From a virus (taxonomy: Duplodnaviria; Heunggongvirae; Uroviricota; Caudoviricetes), in IMG/VR virus record IMGVR_UViG_3300010885_065725: DNA of 27,458 nucleotides, one strand, 5' to 3'. Under the pieces are notes generated by a model. The model had not been told where the DNA came from. It saw nothing but the letters and a program-made list of their open reading frames with translations, and made no database searches. Shown in pieces: positions 1,413 to 15,456 of the stretch; position 1 is the first letter of the stretch; every line of letters begins with the position of its first letter. Position numbers and translations under genes: made by a program.

Positions 1413-1823
1413 ATGAAAGATTTAAATGAATATCAAGAATTTGTAGAATTCACTATTTCTAAACCATCTAGTCATTTTGGTGTTTTGTCCCATAGATTAT
1501 GTGAACTAGAAGAAAGTGGTGGGTTATTGGGAGTAAAGATTCCGGAACTCATGACTTCTGCATTTGGATTGACAGCAGAAGCTGGAGAATACACTGAAGT
1601 TGTGAAAAAAATTGTTTTCCAAGGCAAACCATTGAATGATGAAAATATCTTCCATATGAAGCGAGAATTGGGCGATATTTGTTGGTATCTTGCTGTTGCA
1701 TGTTCTGCACTAAATGTCTCCTTAGACGAAGTTTTTCAGATGAATTTTGATAAACTTAAGGCAAGATATCCAGAAGGTTTTACAGTAGAAAAATCTGAAA
1801 ATAGAAAAGATGGTGATGTGTGA
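1413..1823 (+). CDS. mazG: MazG-like nucleotide pyrophosphohydrolase
   Basis: GLTAEAGEYTEVVKK, KRELGDICWY, NFDKLKARYP. GAGGA at 1403-1407 favours ATG 1413. Confidence 0.85.
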   Translation: MKDLNEYQEFVEFTISKPSSHFGVLSHRLCELEESGGLLGVKIPELMTSAFGLTAEAGEYTEVVKKIVFQGKPLNDENIFHMKRELGDICWYLAVACSALNVSLDEVFQMNFDKLKARYPEGFTVEKSENRKDGDV

Positions 1824-2779
1824 GTAAAAAAATATCAGCATCAACAAAAAATACTGTCTCTTCTAATGGCAGTCTGATGGAAAGAATGATGAAGGCAAGT
1901 ACAATAGAATCTTCTGATGTATTGTCCGAATCTAAATTTTTTACTAAAGCAGACATGATTTCTACTTCTATTCCTGCAATAAATGTTGCACTATCCGGAA
2001 AATTGGATGGTGGGTTTGTGCCTGGGTTGACATTGTTTTGTGGTCCTTCGAAACATTTTAAAACAAGTTTTTCTTTGGTGCTTGCGAAAGCATATATGGA
2101 AAAATATGCAGAATCAGTTTTACTATTTTACGATTCTGAATTCGGGACACCACAAGATTATTTTAAATCATTTGGTATCGATACCAAAAGAGTATTGCAT
2201 ACTCCTATTACCAATATCGAAGAATTAAAATTTGATATTATGCAACAATTAAAAGAAATTGATCGAGGATCAAGAGTAATTATTGTCATTGATTCTATTG
2301 GAAATCTTGCATCAAAAAAAGAATTTGATGATGCAATGGACGGTAAATCTGTTGCCGATATGTCAAGAGCAAAGGCATTGAAAGGTTTGTTCAGAATGGT
2401 AACTCCACATCTTACCATGAAAGATATTCCTATGATTGCAATTAATCATACATATCAGACCCAAGAATTATATTCTAAGGCAGTAGTGTCTGGTGGGTGT
2501 TTAATATCAGGAACAAGAATTAAAATGTTTGATGATTCTTTAAAAAATATTGAAGATATACAAGTAGGTGATTTAGTTATCACATTAGATGGTCCAAAGG
2601 TAGTGACGCATTCTTGGAATCCAGATACTTTAGAAGATGGTGAACCTGAATGTTATAAAATTACATTTGAGGATGGTTATGAAGTAATTTGCTCAGATGA
2701 ACATCCATTTCTTATAAATGAAAAATTTGTGTATGCTAAGGAGCTTTGTATTGGGGATGAGATAACCACAATTAAGTGA
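1820..2779 (+). CDS. uvsX: UvsX recombinase N-extein (226 aa) fused to split-intein N-half
   Basis: P-loop GPSKHFKT, YDSEFG, IDSIGNLASKKE, ADMSRAK; homology stops at VVSGG and CLISGT begins. Confidence 0.95.
   Translation: MSKKISASTKNTVSSNGSLMERMMKASTIESSDVLSESKFFTKADMISTSIPAINVALSGKLDGGFVPGLTLFCGPSKHFKTSFSLVLAKAYMEKYAESVLLFYDSEFGTPQDYFKSFGIDTKRVLHTPITNIEELKFDIMQQLKEIDRGSRVIIVIDSIGNLASKKEFDDAMDGKSVADMSRAKALKGLFRMVTPHLTMKDIPMIAINHTYQTQELYSKAVVSGGCLISGTRIKMFDDSLKNIEDIQVGDLVITLDGPKVVTHSWNPDTLEDGEPECYKITFEDGYEVICSDEHPFLINEKFVYAKELCIGDEITTIK
2498..2776 (+). mobile_element. Split intein N-fragment in UvsX (93 aa)
   Basis: Block A CLISGTRI, IEDIQVGDLV, block B CSDEHPFL, ends AKELCIGDEITTIK*. Confidence 0.93.
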
Positions 2780-2854
2780 ATTTTCAATTCTTATATATGG
2801 ATGAATGGTGCTATTGTCAGAAAAAAATTAAAACTATTAAATAATGGGGTATAA

Positions 2855-2959
2855 ATGAAAATTACAAATATTGAAAAAGTTGGTAAACAAAAAGTTTATG
2901 ATATTACAGTGGCAGATAATCACCAATATGTGCTTGAAAATGGAGTAGTAACTCATAAT
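2855..2959 (+). mobile_element. Split intein C-fragment in UvsX (35 aa), Thr+1
   Basis: MKITNIEKVGKQKVYDITVADNHQYVLENGVVTHN|T: block F VYDITV and block G HN. Confidence 0.93.
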
Positions 2960-3400
2960 ACAGGAATATATTATTCTGCCAGCAATATTTTTATTATCGG
3001 CAGACAACAAGAAAAAGAAGATACAGAAATTGTTGGATATAATTTTATTATAAATGTAGAAAAATCTAGATTTGTAAAAGAAAAATCTAAAATTCCTGTT
3101 TCTGTTCTATATGACGGAGGAATTTCTACATGGTCTGGATTATTGGAAATGGCACTGGATTCTGGTCATGTTGTCAAACCTTCTAATGGATGGTACAGCA
3201 AGGTAGATGTTGCTACAGGTGTAATAGAAGATAAAAGATATAGAATAAAGGATACAAACACAAAAGACTTCTGGATGCCTATTTTGATCGACAAGACATT
3301 CAGAGATTGGACAGAGAATACATATAAATTAATTTCTGCAGAGATTATTTCTAATAGTGAACTAGAAAAAGTTGCAGAAGAAATGGCAAAGACATCTTGA
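2855..3400 (+). CDS. uvsX: Split-intein C-half fused to UvsX C-extein (146 aa)
   Basis: After THN the sequence resumes UvsX: TGIYYSASNIFIIGRQQEK, VEKSRFVKEKSKIP, KPSNGWY. GGGGT SD at 2846-2850. Confidence 0.93.
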   Translation: MKITNIEKVGKQKVYDITVADNHQYVLENGVVTHNTGIYYSASNIFIIGRQQEKEDTEIVGYNFIINVEKSRFVKEKSKIPVSVLYDGGISTWSGLLEMALDSGHVVKPSNGWYSKVDVATGVIEDKRYRIKDTNTKDFWMPILIDKTFRDWTENTYKLISAEIISNSELEKVAEEMAKTS

Positions 3401-3425
3401 CATATTATTAAAAATACGTTACAAT
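3397..3425 (+). promoter_or_regulatory. Sigma70-type (early) promoter
   Basis: TTGACA-17 nt-TACAAT upstream of ORF 3461. Confidence 0.7.
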
Positions 3426-4227: not shown

Positions 4228-4268
4228 ACCCCTCACGCATCCCGTAGGATCTGCGCACCATGAGGGGT
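4228..4268 (+). other. GC-rich stem-loop upstream of gp41
   Basis: ACCCCTCA(4228-4235)/TGAGGGGT(4261-4268) outer stem; inner CGC-ATCC-CGTA-GGAT-CT-GCG. Confidence 0.6.
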
Positions 4269-4295
4269 TACTTTTATGATAATGATAATGTGAAT

Positions 4296-5705
4296 ATGCA
4301 AAGAAAAATAGAAGAAGTAATATTAACAAATCTTGTAATGGACGAACTCTTTACAAGAAAAGTTCTCCCATTTCTCAAAGAAGAATATTTTAGTGAGACA
4401 TGCGAAAAAGTTTTATTCAATGAAATCAATGAGTTTGTAGAAAAATATAATACTATTCCCACAAAAGAGGCACTTTCTATTCTATTGAGCAACAGAACAG
4501 GAATAAATTCTGGTGATTTTGCCTATGCAAATTCATTTGTCGAAAGTGTCGATGTAGAATATCAGCAACCTAATCTTGATTGGTTAATAGATGCATCAGA
4601 AAAATTCTGCAAGGAGGCGGCACTAAATAATGCGATAATGGAATCGATATATATTATCGAAGGTAAATCAAAGGAACATTCTAAAGATGTCATTCCTCAG
4701 ATTCTTTCTGAAGCATTAGGAGTAAGTTTTGATCATGATATTGGTCATAATTATATAGAAGATGCAGAAAAAAGACATGATTTTTATAATGCAGACGAAG
4801 AAAAACTTCCATTTGATTTGAATATTTTTAATAAGATCACAAAAGGTGGATTGAACAGAAAGAGTCTCACATGTATATTAGGACCTCCAGGAGGCGGAAA
4901 AACTATTGCATTGTGTCATTTTGCGGCATCCTATCTTGCTTCCGGAAAAAATGTTCTATATATTACACTGGAAATGGCAGAAGAACGTATTTCTGAAAGA
5001 ATAGATGCAAATCTGATGAATATTCCTATGGACGATATGAAAAATCTTAACAAAGAAAAATTTCTTTCGAAGATAGTGAACATTAAAAATAAGACTAATG
5101 GTAAATTGATAGTAAAAGAATATCCTACTGCGGCTGCACATTGTGGACATTTCAAGGCATTAATAGATGAATTGAATCTGAAGAAAAATTTCAAACCAGA
5201 AATTCTTATTGTAGATTATCTGGGAATTTGTGCCTCTGCAAGATATAAAAATGGTTCTAATATAGGAAATCATTTATATGTTAAAAGTGTCGCAGAAGAG
5301 CTTCGGGGGCTTGCAAAGGTATATAATATTCCTGTTATTACTGCTCACCAATTAAATAGAAGCGGAAGCGTCAGTTCTGACCCAGGAATGGATTCTACCG
5401 GAGACTCTTTTGGTATTCCTGCGACATGTGATCTATTTCTCACTATTATAACAAGTGAAGAAATGGATGGAATGAATCAAATAATGTTCAAACAATTGAA
5501 AAATAGATTCAACGATTTAAATTATTATCATAGATTTGTTGTGGGTATCGATAAGAGTCGTATGAAATTATATGATTTAGAAGATTCTGCACAAATGGAC
5601 AGACCGACAGCCAAAGATACACAGGAACAATATACTCCAAAAGACAGTAACAGTATTTTTGGAAGTACAAAAAGTAAACGTGATTTCTCACAATTTCAAG
5701 TATAA
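4296..5705 (+). CDS. gp41: Replicative DNA helicase (DnaB-like)
   Basis: Walker A GPPGGGKT, VLYITLEMAEERISERIDAN, VKEYPT, IVDYLGI, KQLKNRF. Alternative start at 4260. Confidence 0.96.
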   Translation: MQRKIEEVILTNLVMDELFTRKVLPFLKEEYFSETCEKVLFNEINEFVEKYNTIPTKEALSILLSNRTGINSGDFAYANSFVESVDVEYQQPNLDWLIDASEKFCKEAALNNAIMESIYIIEGKSKEHSKDVIPQILSEALGVSFDHDIGHNYIEDAEKRHDFYNADEEKLPFDLNIFNKITKGGLNRKSLTCILGPPGGGKTIALCHFAASYLASGKNVLYITLEMAEERISERIDANLMNIPMDDMKNLNKEKFLSKIVNIKNKTNGKLIVKEYPTAAAHCGHFKALIDELNLKKNFKPEILIVDYLGICASARYKNGSNIGNHLYVKSVAEELRGLAKVYNIPVITAHQLNRSGSVSSDPGMDSTGDSFGIPATCDLFLTIITSEEMDGMNQIMFKQLKNRFNDLNYYHRFVVGIDKSRMKLYDLEDSAQMDRPTAKDTQEQYTPKDSNSIFGSTKSKRDFSQFQV

Positions 5706-11893: not shown

Positions 11894-12481
11894 ATGTTGA
11901 ATGAATTAAATATTTACGAAGAACTTGGCGAAGAACGCAAAGCACTACAAGAACAAGGATTACTTCCTGAATGGGTGACTACTGCTGCATGGCAGATGCT
12001 CAAAGAAAATTATCTTTCTCCAAAGTATCCTGATTTAAAATGTGTATATACTAGAATAGCAAAACATGCTGCAAAATATATGGCAACAGATCCTGAAGTA
12101 TGGGAAGACAAATTTTTTGAAATCCTCTGGAAAGGGTTTCTTGCTGCATCTACTCCAGTGCTTTCTAATATGGGAACTGGAGTAGGATGTCCTGTAAGCT
12201 GCTTTGTTGCTGGAACAATGGTTAATACAAAAGAAGGTCAAAAGCCTATAGAGAAGCTAACTATAGGCGATATGGTATTGACACATACAAATTCTTATAA
12301 AGAAGTTATTGATATAATGAATAGAGTATCAGATGATCTTTATGAATTAGAATTTAATGGAGAAGTTTTTGTTGTAACAGGTAATCATTTAGTTCTAACG
12401 AAAGAGGGTGGGTGGGTTCCGGTGGATGAACTCGATCCAAAAGTCCACAATATTGTTCAAATTTTGGATGATCTTTTGTGA
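11894..12481 (+). CDS. nrdA: NrdA N-extein (102 aa, no ATP cone) fused to split-intein N-half
   Basis: LWKGFLAASTPVLSNMG, GCPVS|CFVAGT. Confidence 0.93.
   Translation: MLNELNIYEELGEERKALQEQGLLPEWVTTAAWQMLKENYLSPKYPDLKCVYTRIAKHAAKYMATDPEVWEDKFFEILWKGFLAASTPVLSNMGTGVGCPVSCFVAGTMVNTKEGQKPIEKLTIGDMVLTHTNSYKEVIDIMNRVSDDLYELEFNGEVFVVTGNHLVLTKEGGWVPVDELDPKVHNIVQILDDLL
12200..12478 (+). mobile_element. Split intein N-fragment in NrdA (93 aa)
   Basis: CFVAGTMV, IEKLTIGDMVLTH, block B VTGNHLVL. Confidence 0.93.
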
Positions 12482-13452: not shown

Positions 13453-13560
13453 ATGAATTTTAAGGTCATAAAAATTAATAAAAAAGATACTGTATATGAC
13501 ATTACAGTAGATACGGATCATTCCTTTACAATTGGAGATTCGAAAGTAGTGGTACATAAT
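13453..13560 (+). mobile_element. Split intein C-fragment in NrdA (36 aa), Cys+1
   Basis: MNFKVIKINKKDTVYDITVDTDHSFTIGDSKVVVHN|C. Confidence 0.93.
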
Positions 13561-15456
13561 TGCAGCGGAAATTACGTTAAAGATTCTGTCTATGCATTTT
13601 ATGATTCTCAGAAGGAAGCTGCAGTACTTTCTAAGAATGGATTTGGCACTTCCGGATATTTGGGTTCTATTAGATCGCGTGGATCAAAGATTGCTGGAAT
13701 GAAAGGTTCTGCATCTGGTGTGCTTCCGGTATTTAAAGATTTTGTTCAAATGTCAAGAGATATTTCTCAAGGCTCTCAACGCAGAGGGGCATGGGCAGGA
13801 TATATAGAAATTGAACATAATGATTTCTTTGAGTTAATTAATTTTATTCATAAGAATCCGGACGATGCAAATATCGGTTGGAATATTTCTGATAAATTTA
13901 TTGCTAGACTAGATGCAGGAGATAAAGATGCCATTGATCGCTATCAGAAAGCTTTAAAATTAAAGATGATAACTGGCAAAGGATACTTCAATTTTATTGA
14001 TAGAGTCAATCGTCAGAACCCTAAGATGTATGTTGACAGAGGATTGACTGTTAAGGCAAGCAATCTTTGTTTCTCTGGTGATACAATGGTTGCTGTTGCT
14101 GATGGTAGAAATGCAGTCTCAATAGCACAATTGGCAGATGAATCTGACCACGGTACATATAAATTTCCTGTTTATTCTTCTAGATGGAATGATACTAAAA
14201 AAATATGGGTTAATGAAGTTAAAGAGGCAATAGCATTTAAAACTGGAGAACATCAAACAATAAAATTAACATTATCTGATGGCTCTACCTTTAAGTGTAC
14301 TCCTGATCATAGAATTGCAATGTCTGATGGTAATTATATTGAGGCATCTTTATCATTAGGAAAACATTTACAACCATTTTATACTATATCAGAGAAAAAA
14401 GAACTATATTCAGTACAAACATTAAGTGTAATTGCTATAGAGTATGGTGAAATAGAATCTGTGTATGATCTTACTGTTGAGGATAATCACAATTTTAACA
14501 TAATTACATCAACTCAAGATGATGCGTATCTTCAGTGTTCTGGTATATTAGTGCATAATTGTACAGAGATAGCATTATTTTCTGATGATGATCATACATT
14601 TTCTTGTGTATTATCTTCTATGAATGCCTCTAAGTATGATGAATGGAAAGATACAGATGCTGTTTTTGTTGCGACATGTTTTCTTGATTGCGTCAATCAG
14701 GATCTGATTGAAATTGGTAAGACTGTTGCAGGTATGGAAAAGGTAGTACGATTTGCCGAGAAAAGCCGAGCATTGGGTTTAGGTTTGCTTGGGTTTCATA
14801 CGTATCTACAAGAACATATGATTGCATTTGAATCTTTTGAAGCACATCTAAAGAATGTAGAGATATTCAAACATCTGGATGCAGAATCATTGAGGGCATC
14901 ACAATGGATGGCATATCAATATGGCGAACCTTTTTGGTGTAAAGGATATGGACTAAGAAATACCCATAGAATTGCAATTGCTCCAAATCTTTCTTCTGCA
15001 TTGATATGTGGATCTGTTTCTCAAGGTATTGAACCAATATATAAAAATGCATATGTACAAAATACTGCTGCAGGAAAGGTAGATAGAGTTAATCCTACTT
15101 TACTGAAAATTATGAAAGATCGAGACGTATATAGTGAAGAAACTATCACAGATATTATTAAGAATTCTGGATCAGTACAGCATGTATCTTGGCTATCGGA
15201 CGAAGAAAAACCAGTATTCAAGACTGCATTTGAGATTGATCAGATGGTAATTATTAAACTTGCTTCTGTTAGGCAGAGATATATAGATCAGGCACAGAGT
15301 ATTAATCTATTCTTTTCTGCAGATGAGTCAGAAGAATATATTTCTCAAGTACACAAATATGCATTTAAGGATCAATATATAAAAAGTTTATATTATATTA
15401 GATCTGAGACTGGAGTAAATGTTAATAAATCTGAGTGCACTAGCTGTCACGGATAA
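13453..15456 (+). CDS. nrdA: Split-intein C-half + NrdA middle extein + cis mini-intein + NrdA C-extein
   Basis: HN|CSG, GFGTS, QGSQRRGAWAGY, SNL|intein|CTEI, FSCVLSSMN, AIAPNLSS, SLYYIRS, terminal CTSCHG. AAGGA SD. Confidence 0.95.
   Translation: MNFKVIKINKKDTVYDITVDTDHSFTIGDSKVVVHNCSGNYVKDSVYAFYDSQKEAAVLSKNGFGTSGYLGSIRSRGSKIAGMKGSASGVLPVFKDFVQMSRDISQGSQRRGAWAGYIEIEHNDFFELINFIHKNPDDANIGWNISDKFIARLDAGDKDAIDRYQKALKLKMITGKGYFNFIDRVNRQNPKMYVDRGLTVKASNLCFSGDTMVAVADGRNAVSIAQLADESDHGTYKFPVYSSRWNDTKKIWVNEVKEAIAFKTGEHQTIKLTLSDGSTFKCTPDHRIAMSDGNYIEASLSLGKHLQPFYTISEKKELYSVQTLSVIAIEYGEIESVYDLTVEDNHNFNIITSTQDDAYLQCSGILVHNCTEIALFSDDDHTFSCVLSSMNASKYDEWKDTDAVFVATCFLDCVNQDLIEIGKTVAGMEKVVRFAEKSRALGLGLLGFHTYLQEHMIAFESFEAHLKNVEIFKHLDAESLRASQWMAYQYGEPFWCKGYGLRNTHRIAIAPNLSSALICGSVSQGIEPIYKNAYVQNTAAGKVDRVNPTLLKIMKDRDVYSEETITDIIKNSGSVQHVSWLSDEEKPVFKTAFEIDQMVIIKLASVRQRYIDQAQSINLFFSADESEEYISQVHKYAFKDQYIKSLYYIRSETGVNVNKSECTSCHG
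14068..14559 (+). mobile_element. Contiguous mini-intein (164 aa, no endonuclease domain) in NrdA
   Basis: CFSGDTMV, CTPDHRI, VYDLTVEDNHNF, ILVHN|C. Confidence 0.95.

Follow-up and report, generated by a model that had tools for sequence, protein, structure and literature searches.

Layout of the uvsX locus

The gene for the recombinase UvsX in a freshwater T4-like phage, represented by the IMG/VR record IMGVR_UViG_3300010885_065725 (Caudoviricetes; 27,458 nucleotides, the whole stretch being called the window below), is carried on two open reading frames (ORFs) of the + strand that are joined to the two halves of an intein. The N-half ORF (1820-2779, 319 amino acids) comprises a 226-residue N-terminal part of UvsX and a 93-residue N-terminal intein half (IntN); it ends with ...SKAVVSGG/CLISGT...ITTIK, where the slash marks a splice site and CLISGT... 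begins at residue 227, followed by TGA at 2777-2779. The C-half ORF (2855-3400, 181 amino acids) comprises a 35-residue C-terminal intein half (IntC) and a 146-residue C-terminal part of UvsX that starts with Thr at position +1. The two ORFs share one frame (their starts, 1820 and 2855, each equal 2 mod 3), with TGA 2777 and TAA 2852 as the only in-frame stops between the halves, and the spacer between them (2780-2854) is 75 nucleotides (nt) long, with no ORF of at least 25 amino acids on either strand. A candidate ribosome-binding site, GGGGT at 2846-2850, stands 4 nt 5' of the C-half ATG at 2855. The features are listed here, with L005 denoting the IMG/VR contig IMGVR_UViG_3300022305_000337, which carries the closest relative of the intein, and X2 denoting an independent freshwater run.

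1820 to 2497, + strand: UvsX N-extein, 226 amino acids, with Walker A GPSKHFKT and the end VVSGG; Pfam RecA; structure match 3io5
2498 to 2776, + strand: IntN, 93 amino acids, with Cys1 and block B S66-D-E-H69; match to the gp41-1 intein, 6qaz
2777 to 2779, + strand: TGA stop of the N-half gene, the same in an independent X2 contig
2780 to 2795: left part of the spacer, common with L005, where it lies upstream of the endonuclease gene
2787 to 2795: single remaining copy of a 9-bp direct repeat, ATTCTTATA, at the deletion junction
2796 to 2854, + strand: remnant of an endonuclease gene, its final 19 codons (IWMNGAIVRKKLKLLNNGV) and TAA 2852; includes GGGGT
2801 onward: mini-ORF of 17 codons, from an in-frame ATG at 2801 to the TAA directly 5' of ATG 2855
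2855 to 2959, + strand: IntC, 35 amino acids, with block F Asp16 and terminal His34-Asn35 (VVTHN); TIGR01443; structure match 4lx3_B
2960 to 3400, + strand: UvsX C-extein, 146 amino acids, with Thr+1 in TGIYYSAS and TGA at 3398-3400; T4_UVSX_C; structure match 3io5

Together the halves contain the RecA core with its Walker A motif and the T4 UvsX C-terminal domain, placing the protein in the UvsX/RecA family. The N-half matches Pfam RecA (PF00154) with 33.2 bits and the C-half matches T4_UVSX_C (PF21134) with 65.2 bits (cut-off 27 for each), and both match the T4 UvsX structure 3io5 (E = 2e-65 and 7e-37, respectively). Once the intein is removed, SKAVVSGG/TGIYYSASN of the window is exactly colinear with SKTVMGGG/TGPMYSADT of T4 UvsX, and Thr+1 is the native UvsX residue in this alignment. 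In the closest intein-less uvsX genes of IMG/VR (L022, L023, and L025 to L029; N-extein 84 to 86% identical), the matches to the N- and C-exteins abut with no gap. The insertion site lies in the conserved GG/TG segment of the RecA core.

A preliminary description of this locus had given the ORF layout, the common frame, and the two stops, all of which are correct at every coordinate, and its GGGGT Shine-Dalgarno sequence, its Thr+1 residue, and the lack of an endonuclease gene between the halves hold as well. Its length of 372 amino acids for UvsX (226 + 146) stands if translation begins at GTG 1820; the alternative ATG at 1877 (Met20) would give 353 amino acids and matches the T4 UvsX N terminus about equally well, leaving the start uncertain.

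A canonically split class 1 intein

The halves carry the residues of a class 1 intein: Cys1 (2498-2500) directly follows VVSGG, block B has a T/S-x-x-H motif (S66-D-E-H69), and a C-terminal His-Asn precedes Thr+1 (VVTHN/T). Cys1, S66, H69, Asp16, H34, N35, and T36 (Thr+1) are invariant in 14 aligned relatives. The best structure match of IntN outside UvsX is the gp41-1 split intein (6qaz; E = 2.9e-7), and IntC matches Npu DnaE IntC (4lx3_B; E = 0.004). A profile search, which the preliminary description had called for, gave 49.0 bits for Pfam Intein_splicing (PF14890; cut-off 35.8) on the 154-residue string with both stops read through, each half on its own staying below the cut-off, and 32.2 bits for NCBIfam intein_Cterm (TIGR01443; cut-off 15.6) on IntC.

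A canonical split falls at the endonuclease-insertion loop, with an IntN of ~90 to 125 amino acids and an IntC of ~35 to 40 amino acids on separate ORFs. Here, a 93-residue IntN that ends at TGA 2777 and a 35-residue IntC that starts at ATG 2855 lie on separate ORFs, and the splicing residues, the gp41-1 and Npu DnaE matches, the exact excision, and the predicted docking of the halves bear out the earlier assignment to this type. IntN is acidic, as had been described (20 Asp and Glu versus 8 Lys and Arg, net -12). The basic N terminus ascribed to IntC is real for the first 13 residues (net +2.5), whereas the charge of the entire IntC is close to zero. An electrostatic role of charged strands in the association of split inteins was proposed by Dassa et al. 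(PMC2677866).

Complex prediction for IntN with IntC, each partner being given a 14-row alignment, reached 0.70 against 0.00 for the best of three controls. It thereby passed a mark that is attained by 58 of the 80 solved complexes and by 2 of the 110 mismatched pairs used to set it against; at least 96% of contacts were common to the runs, and the pLDDT (predicted local distance difference test) of the partner was at least 78. The prediction supports association of IntN and IntC, and since complexes of gp41-1 and Npu DnaE have been solved, it shows likeness more than proof of binding.

The spacer is the remnant of a homing endonuclease gene

At the protein level, IntN and IntC of L005 are 92% and 94% identical to those of the window, and the L005 halves are separated by 854 nt that hold an intact ORF of 260 amino acids (4505-5287). 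This ORF encodes a GIY-YIG-like/NUMOD3 endonuclease (NUMOD3 motif, 30.7 bits; cut-off 20.4), with 41% identity to the annotated homing endonucleases that likewise sit between the uvsX halves in Proteus phage PM2 and Vibrio phage EniLVp02. The window spacer consists of the two ends of this gap: positions 2796-2854 match L005 5229-5287 at 57 of 59 nt, and positions 2780-2795 match the 16 nt 3' of the L005 IntN stop at 15 of 16 nt. In the same frame, the L005 ORF ends in ...SNIWMNGAIVRKKLKLLNNEV and the window spacer in ...SYIWMNGAIVRKKLKLLNNGV before the stop. A tblastn search of the window with the L005 endonuclease matched the spacer with residues 238 to 260 (E = 5e-7), and matches elsewhere in the window were weak (E = 0.01 or worse).

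How was the rest of the gene lost? L005 carries two near-identical 9-bp repeats, ATTCTTATA at 4441 and, 779 bp further on, ATTCTAATA at 5220, of which the window retains one copy. Since the difference between the two gaps is the same number (854 - 75 = 779), the window is a deletion derivative. As read from the two sequences, the spacer is the remnant of a lost homing endonuclease gene, here seen directly. The preliminary description had left the choice between such a remnant and a remnant of the intein loop; the first stands, and the second is not supported, the codons between the stops being the endonuclease tail by the 57/59-nt match to L005. Overall, uvsX of the window is very probably a fractured gene whose pieces are connected through a canonical, naturally split class 1 intein (Cys1/Thr+1) that has lost its endonuclease gene through the 779-bp deletion.

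The direction of the event could also be turned around, with the 75-bp spacer as the ancestral empty site and the L005 endonuclease gene as a later insert whose ORF runs into a preexisting spacer. The repeats flanking the L005 insert can be read as a duplication made on insertion, and the L005 endonuclease is without the C-terminal CxxC...RWHNxNC module present in its homologues. Homing endonucleases, however, spread by double-strand-break repair and are not known to generate duplications of their targets. Homologous endonucleases from other UvsX loci (L006, L013, L133, and others) align with the L005 protein through residues 245 to 255 (about residue 252) of its 260 residues, i.e., inside the segment retained in the window, which is therefore not an empty site. 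Moreover, graded decay in independent lineages always keeps the 3' end. Stepwise decay of a single endonuclease gene is seen between the near-identical intein halves of L006, L008, and L012, whose gaps of 919, 561, and 165 nt contain a 292-residue ORF, fragments of 98 and 52 residues, and a 52-residue tail only, respectively; the endonuclease 3' end is the survivor in the window, L012, L015, L016, and L018 alike. We therefore consider an ancestral empty site very unlikely and retain the deletion as the origin of the spacer.

As would be expected of a homing element, the intein and its endonuclease gene have had a different history from the host gene. Nucleotide identity between the window and L005 is 93.2% in IntN and 94.3% in IntC, compared with 75.6% in the N-extein (synonymous divergence, dS, of ~2) and 63 to 87% in 30-nt bins of the C-extein, where it falls right after the splice site. 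With exteins only 63 to 87% identical, it is the cassette, not the phage, that is the close relative of L005.

Deleted and endonuclease-bearing alleles in independent metagenomes

The preliminary description had advised an inspection of both stops, which contigs from other runs made possible. Two Logan contigs of X2 agree with the window at every position over 1800-2839 and 2841-3084, respectively, the first of them running across TGA 2777 and the deletion junction. Over 2803-2953, a stretch that takes in TAA 2852 and ATG 2855, a contig of run X4 likewise shows 0 differences. No single contig spans 1800-3450, X3 and X4 covering the stretch in part. The split layout of uvsX is not an assembly artifact.

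These contigs bear on the proposal that the stops or the deletion arose as errors of sequencing or assembly, or that readthrough or recoding of the stops yields a contiguous precursor with a 154-residue intein. The halves are indeed in the same frame with only two stops between them. Yet contigs from two other runs repeat both stops and the junction without a difference, the stops are different codons (TGA and TAA), and the 25 codons between them are endonuclease tail rather than intein loop. The parent had its halves out of frame, and a deletion of 779 bp, a length not divisible by 3, brought them into a common frame by coincidence; among related loci, over 70 have the halves on separate ORFs, whether in one frame or in different frames. 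We give this proposal next to no weight.

A contig of X3 is identical to the window over 2487-2795 and then runs on into the flank that precedes the L005 endonuclease gene, indicating that the deleted and the endonuclease-bearing alleles both circulate; independent lake metagenomes contain both forms. The deletion looks recent, as X3 pairs an identical IntN with the endonuclease gene. A relative in X9, ~90% identical, continues into endonuclease sequence on both sides. Exact-pattern scans of IMG/VR for either junction found no near-identical sibling with an endonuclease gene, and a scan of one metagenome for such a sibling yielded nothing but an L005-like contig that ends inside the endonuclease gene and has 94% identity to L005 versus 83% to the window. 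The closer endonuclease-bearing sibling is hence known only from the X3 Logan contig.

A large family of UvsX split inteins

A scan of IMG/VR with the IntN alignment gave 192 stretches, and the best 80 of them all have the intein at the UvsX site, (V/I)(V/I)(S/G)GG/C ... HN/TG; Thr+1 is found in nearly all loci where both halves were read. We tabulated 77 loci from these 80, without dereplication, three contigs ending before IntC. The gap holds an endonuclease ORF of at least 229 amino acids (GIY-YIG-like or HNH) in 44 of the 77 loci and a partial endonuclease gene or remnant in 11, while 19 have a spacer of at most 165 nt and 3 have a contiguous mini-intein of ~130 amino acids. Loci without an endonuclease gene show at least 12 different spacer lengths (23 to 165 nt), and all of them keep the catalytic residues.

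The three contiguous mini-inteins (L114:2501-2890, L115, and L155:2501-2896) are ~130 to 132 amino acids long and lie at the UvsX GG/TG site with neither a stop nor an endonuclease gene; they pass Pfam Intein_splicing (50.4 bits). They are either a preinvasion ancestor or re-fused derivatives. An almost contiguous intein is found at L137:414-905 (on one contig with L058), where a 98-residue IntN and the IntC frame are parted by one in-frame TAG and one codon, and the IntC ORF starts 25 residues 5' of the usual Met. At L018:4122-4445 (on one contig with L117), the IntN ORF is 107 amino acids long through an in-frame fusion to an endonuclease zinc finger remnant (...NLNRWHNENCKHKME), and the decayed endonuclease tail is now part of the IntN protein. 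The gap ORFs of L006, L013, L020, L030, L015, and L016, which include GIY-YIG-like and HNH types, share one C-terminal module, CxxC...(K/R)WHN(D/E)NCK; two kinds of nuclease domain thus carry a common module. Read in another frame, the coding sequence of the module overlaps the start of IntC (KDGIM..VKGK..M).

Cultured phages also contain members of this family. In INPHARED, 44 records have the N-extein with IntN, and each record inspected has an annotated homing endonuclease between the uvsX halves. Aeromonas phage PX29, considered as a cultured case of IntC without an endonuclease gene, was rejected; its uvsX is contiguous (411 amino acids), with no room for an intein.

Sequence divergence is consistent with purifying selection on the intein halves. 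Between the window and L005, the ratio of nonsynonymous to synonymous rates (dN/dS) is 0.15 for IntN and 0.11 for IntC, and among 16 loci with a spacer of at most 165 nt, pairwise values are 0.06 to 0.21, with the catalytic residues kept in all. These data speak to whether the halves still splice at all. The window intein might have stopped splicing, so that UvsX is either a noncovalent two-piece enzyme held together by its intein halves or a fresh pseudogene. Trans-splicing of this intein is predicted, the deletion looks recent, and there is a precedent for noncovalent rescue of an endonuclease-split gene in Aeh1 NrdA, cited in PMC2677866 and PMC3045599. Set against this, the catalytic residues are intact in the window and in every relative without an endonuclease gene, the halves have no frameshifts, and dN/dS is well under 1. 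Furthermore, a 128-residue HINT domain left in place at GG/TG within the RecA core would be likely to perturb the filament. Loss of splicing is accordingly unlikely in our judgment, and a UvsX joined in trans by the split intein is preferred.

Expression signals and proposed course of splicing

The spacer has no promoter-like or terminator-like site, and its predicted RNA structure (-11.3 kcal/mol, z = +0.43) is no better than that of shuffled sequences. A terminator-like hairpin (1359-1382) and a promoter-like site (3397-3425) instead flank the split gene; the halves are therefore probably cotranscribed and separately translated. The sequence TATAAATG at 2850-2857 resembles a T4 late promoter; it was rejected as a promoter of the C-half, since it overlaps the ATG.

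The history of the locus would begin with the entry of a cassette of intein plus endonuclease gene, 93 to 94% identical to that of L005 in nucleotides, into the uvsX gene of the window. Deletion of 779 bp between the 9-bp repeats (ATTCTTATA and ATTCTAATA) would then have removed the endonuclease gene, leaving 16 nt of upstream flank and the last 59 nt of that gene. In the present state, one mRNA would most likely serve both halves, each being translated separately, and what survives of the 3' end of the former endonuclease gene would supply the ribosome-binding site and ATG for the C-half. A ribosome-binding site and start of the C-half within the 3' end of the endonuclease gene were proposed for the invading element by Dassa et al. 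(PMC2677866). The acidic IntN would pair with the Lys-rich start of IntC in the HINT fold, and a thioester at Cys1, attack by Thr+1, and cyclization of Asn35 would follow in turn. The predicted product is a UvsX of 372 (or 353) amino acids with the native ...VVSGG-TGIYY... junction.

Several points weigh against this reading of an intein that is still at work. The spliced product itself is a prediction. The N-half scores 20.4 bits with NCBIfam intein_Nterm (TIGR01445), slightly under the curated cut-off of 24.5, and the complex prediction may be a recall of solved split-intein structures. The GGGGT of the C-half is a weaker ribosome-binding site than GAGGT of L005. As the deletion looks recent, the low dN/dS in the window lineage says little on selection after the loss. 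Finally, the contigs from the X9 RNA library belong to the ~90% identical, endonuclease-bearing relative and do not represent expression of the window allele.

Conceivably, the split intein is more than a selfish element left stranded and has been kept after the loss of the endonuclease as a posttranslational gate that times recombination-dependent replication, with the tail mini-ORF as a coupling leader, an idea that we regard as improbable. If it were true, UvsX would be active only with enough of both halves or under permissive redox or temperature conditions, and the 17-codon mini-ORF ending in TAA-ATG would set the IntC:IntN ratio.

Comparison with known split inteins and fractured genes

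Dassa et al. described fractured genes, in which an endonuclease gene lies between the halves, and their locus gp41-7, without an endonuclease gene, represents step III of their model (PMC2677866). With 75 nt and a 59-nt endonuclease tail between its halves, the window locus is in the post-loss state of step III, like gp41-7, and not in the canonical fractured form. In both, a canonical split intein interrupts a DNA metabolism gene of a T4-like phage at a conserved position, and the halves are adjacent on the same strand with the endonuclease gene lost; the window IntN also resembles the gp41-1 intein. Unlike in the loci of that study, where UvsX is only a neighboring ORF (PMC2677866), the host gene here is uvsX, and the +1 residue is Thr versus Ser. 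Here, too, both states are available, with the gene present in L005, and the deletion is defined to the nucleotide. Compared with L005, the window has a near-identical intein and spacer flanks but no intact endonuclease ORF.

Split uvsX genes occur in cultured Straboviridae, namely, Proteus phages PM2 and Pm5461, Yersinia phage TG1, Escherichia phage HY03, Shewanella phage Thanatos-1, and Vibrio phages vB_VmeM-32 and EniLVp02. Their inteins share with that of the window the site (..GG/C ... HN/TG) and the split type, with IntN and IntC 40 to 69% identical. In contrast to the ~500- to 1,000-nt gap with an annotated homing endonuclease gene in the Straboviridae inspected, the window has 75 nt and no gene. 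The Morganella/Pm5461 phage paper does not mention a split uvsX, and no paper describing a canonical UvsX split intein was found in the literature searched.

Like the inteins of Npu and Ssp DnaE and of Neq Pol, the window intein is a canonical split intein without an endonuclease gene, and Neq Pol shares its Thr+1. Unlike in those systems, whose halves are at distant loci (step IV), the halves here are 75 nt apart. Neq Pol is thermophilic and has Ser1, compared with Cys1 in the window. VidaL, AceL-TerL, GOS-TerL, and PolB16 OarG are naturally split phage or metagenome inteins as well. Some VidaL inteins come from UvsX genes. Atypically split UvsX inteins, which the preliminary description had mentioned, were not found in the literature searched and would differ in any case, the IntN here having 93 amino acids. 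Atypically split inteins have a short IntN of 15 to 30 amino acids, split after β2 or α1 (PMC13014065); the window intein is not of the VidaL/AceL-TerL type, because its IntN is 93 amino acids long and the split is at the canonical endonuclease insertion loop.

The novelty implied earlier for a natural Thr+1 split intein does not survive, as Neq Pol is a natural split intein with Ser1/Thr+1 (PMC11766414), and Cys1/Thr+1 is a common pairing among inteins generally (PMC11766414). The arrangement, a fractured gene after endonuclease loss, is likewise already known, and the window is a clean new example of it. What it adds is a before-and-after record, at nucleotide level, of endonuclease loss from a fractured gene by a 779-bp deletion at 9-bp repeats. 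The retained 3' end of the endonuclease gene holds the ribosome-binding site and start of the C-half, thereby supporting the gene-breaking proposal of 2009 on the origin of free split inteins such as DnaE. The window also supplies one more member of a large gp41-1-like Cys1/Thr+1 split-intein family with many natural variants, including contiguous mini-inteins. This UvsX family is abundant in public phage genomes and metagenomes and apparently unpublished; a screen of its members could look for fast mesophilic ligation tools in which Thr is accepted at +1, and the biology can be tested in its relatives from cultured coliphages and Proteus phages.

Neighboring genes and other inteins of the phage

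A terminator-like hairpin lies at 1359-1382, upstream of the gene that precedes uvsX. That gene (ORF 1401-1823) has a stop that overlaps the GTG of uvsX at 1820 as GTGA, an arrangement that suggests translational coupling; cyanophage matches to this stretch are annotated as MazG-like pyrophosphatase. On the other side, a near-consensus σ70-like promoter is predicted at 3397-3425 (TTGACA, 17 nt, TACAAT; 11 of 12 matches), overlapping the uvsX stop, and is followed by small ORFs and then by a DnaB-like helicase gene (4260-5705), which is unsplit here. The same phage carries split inteins in terL and nrdA as well. The UvsX IntN and IntC weakly match the nrdA inteins of the window at 12200-12283, 13459-13560, and 14236-14496, and an IntC-like sequence of nrdA, FKVIKINKKDTVYDITVDTDH...VVVHN, is 42% identical to the UvsX IntC, which bears on the orthogonality of the split inteins within this phage.

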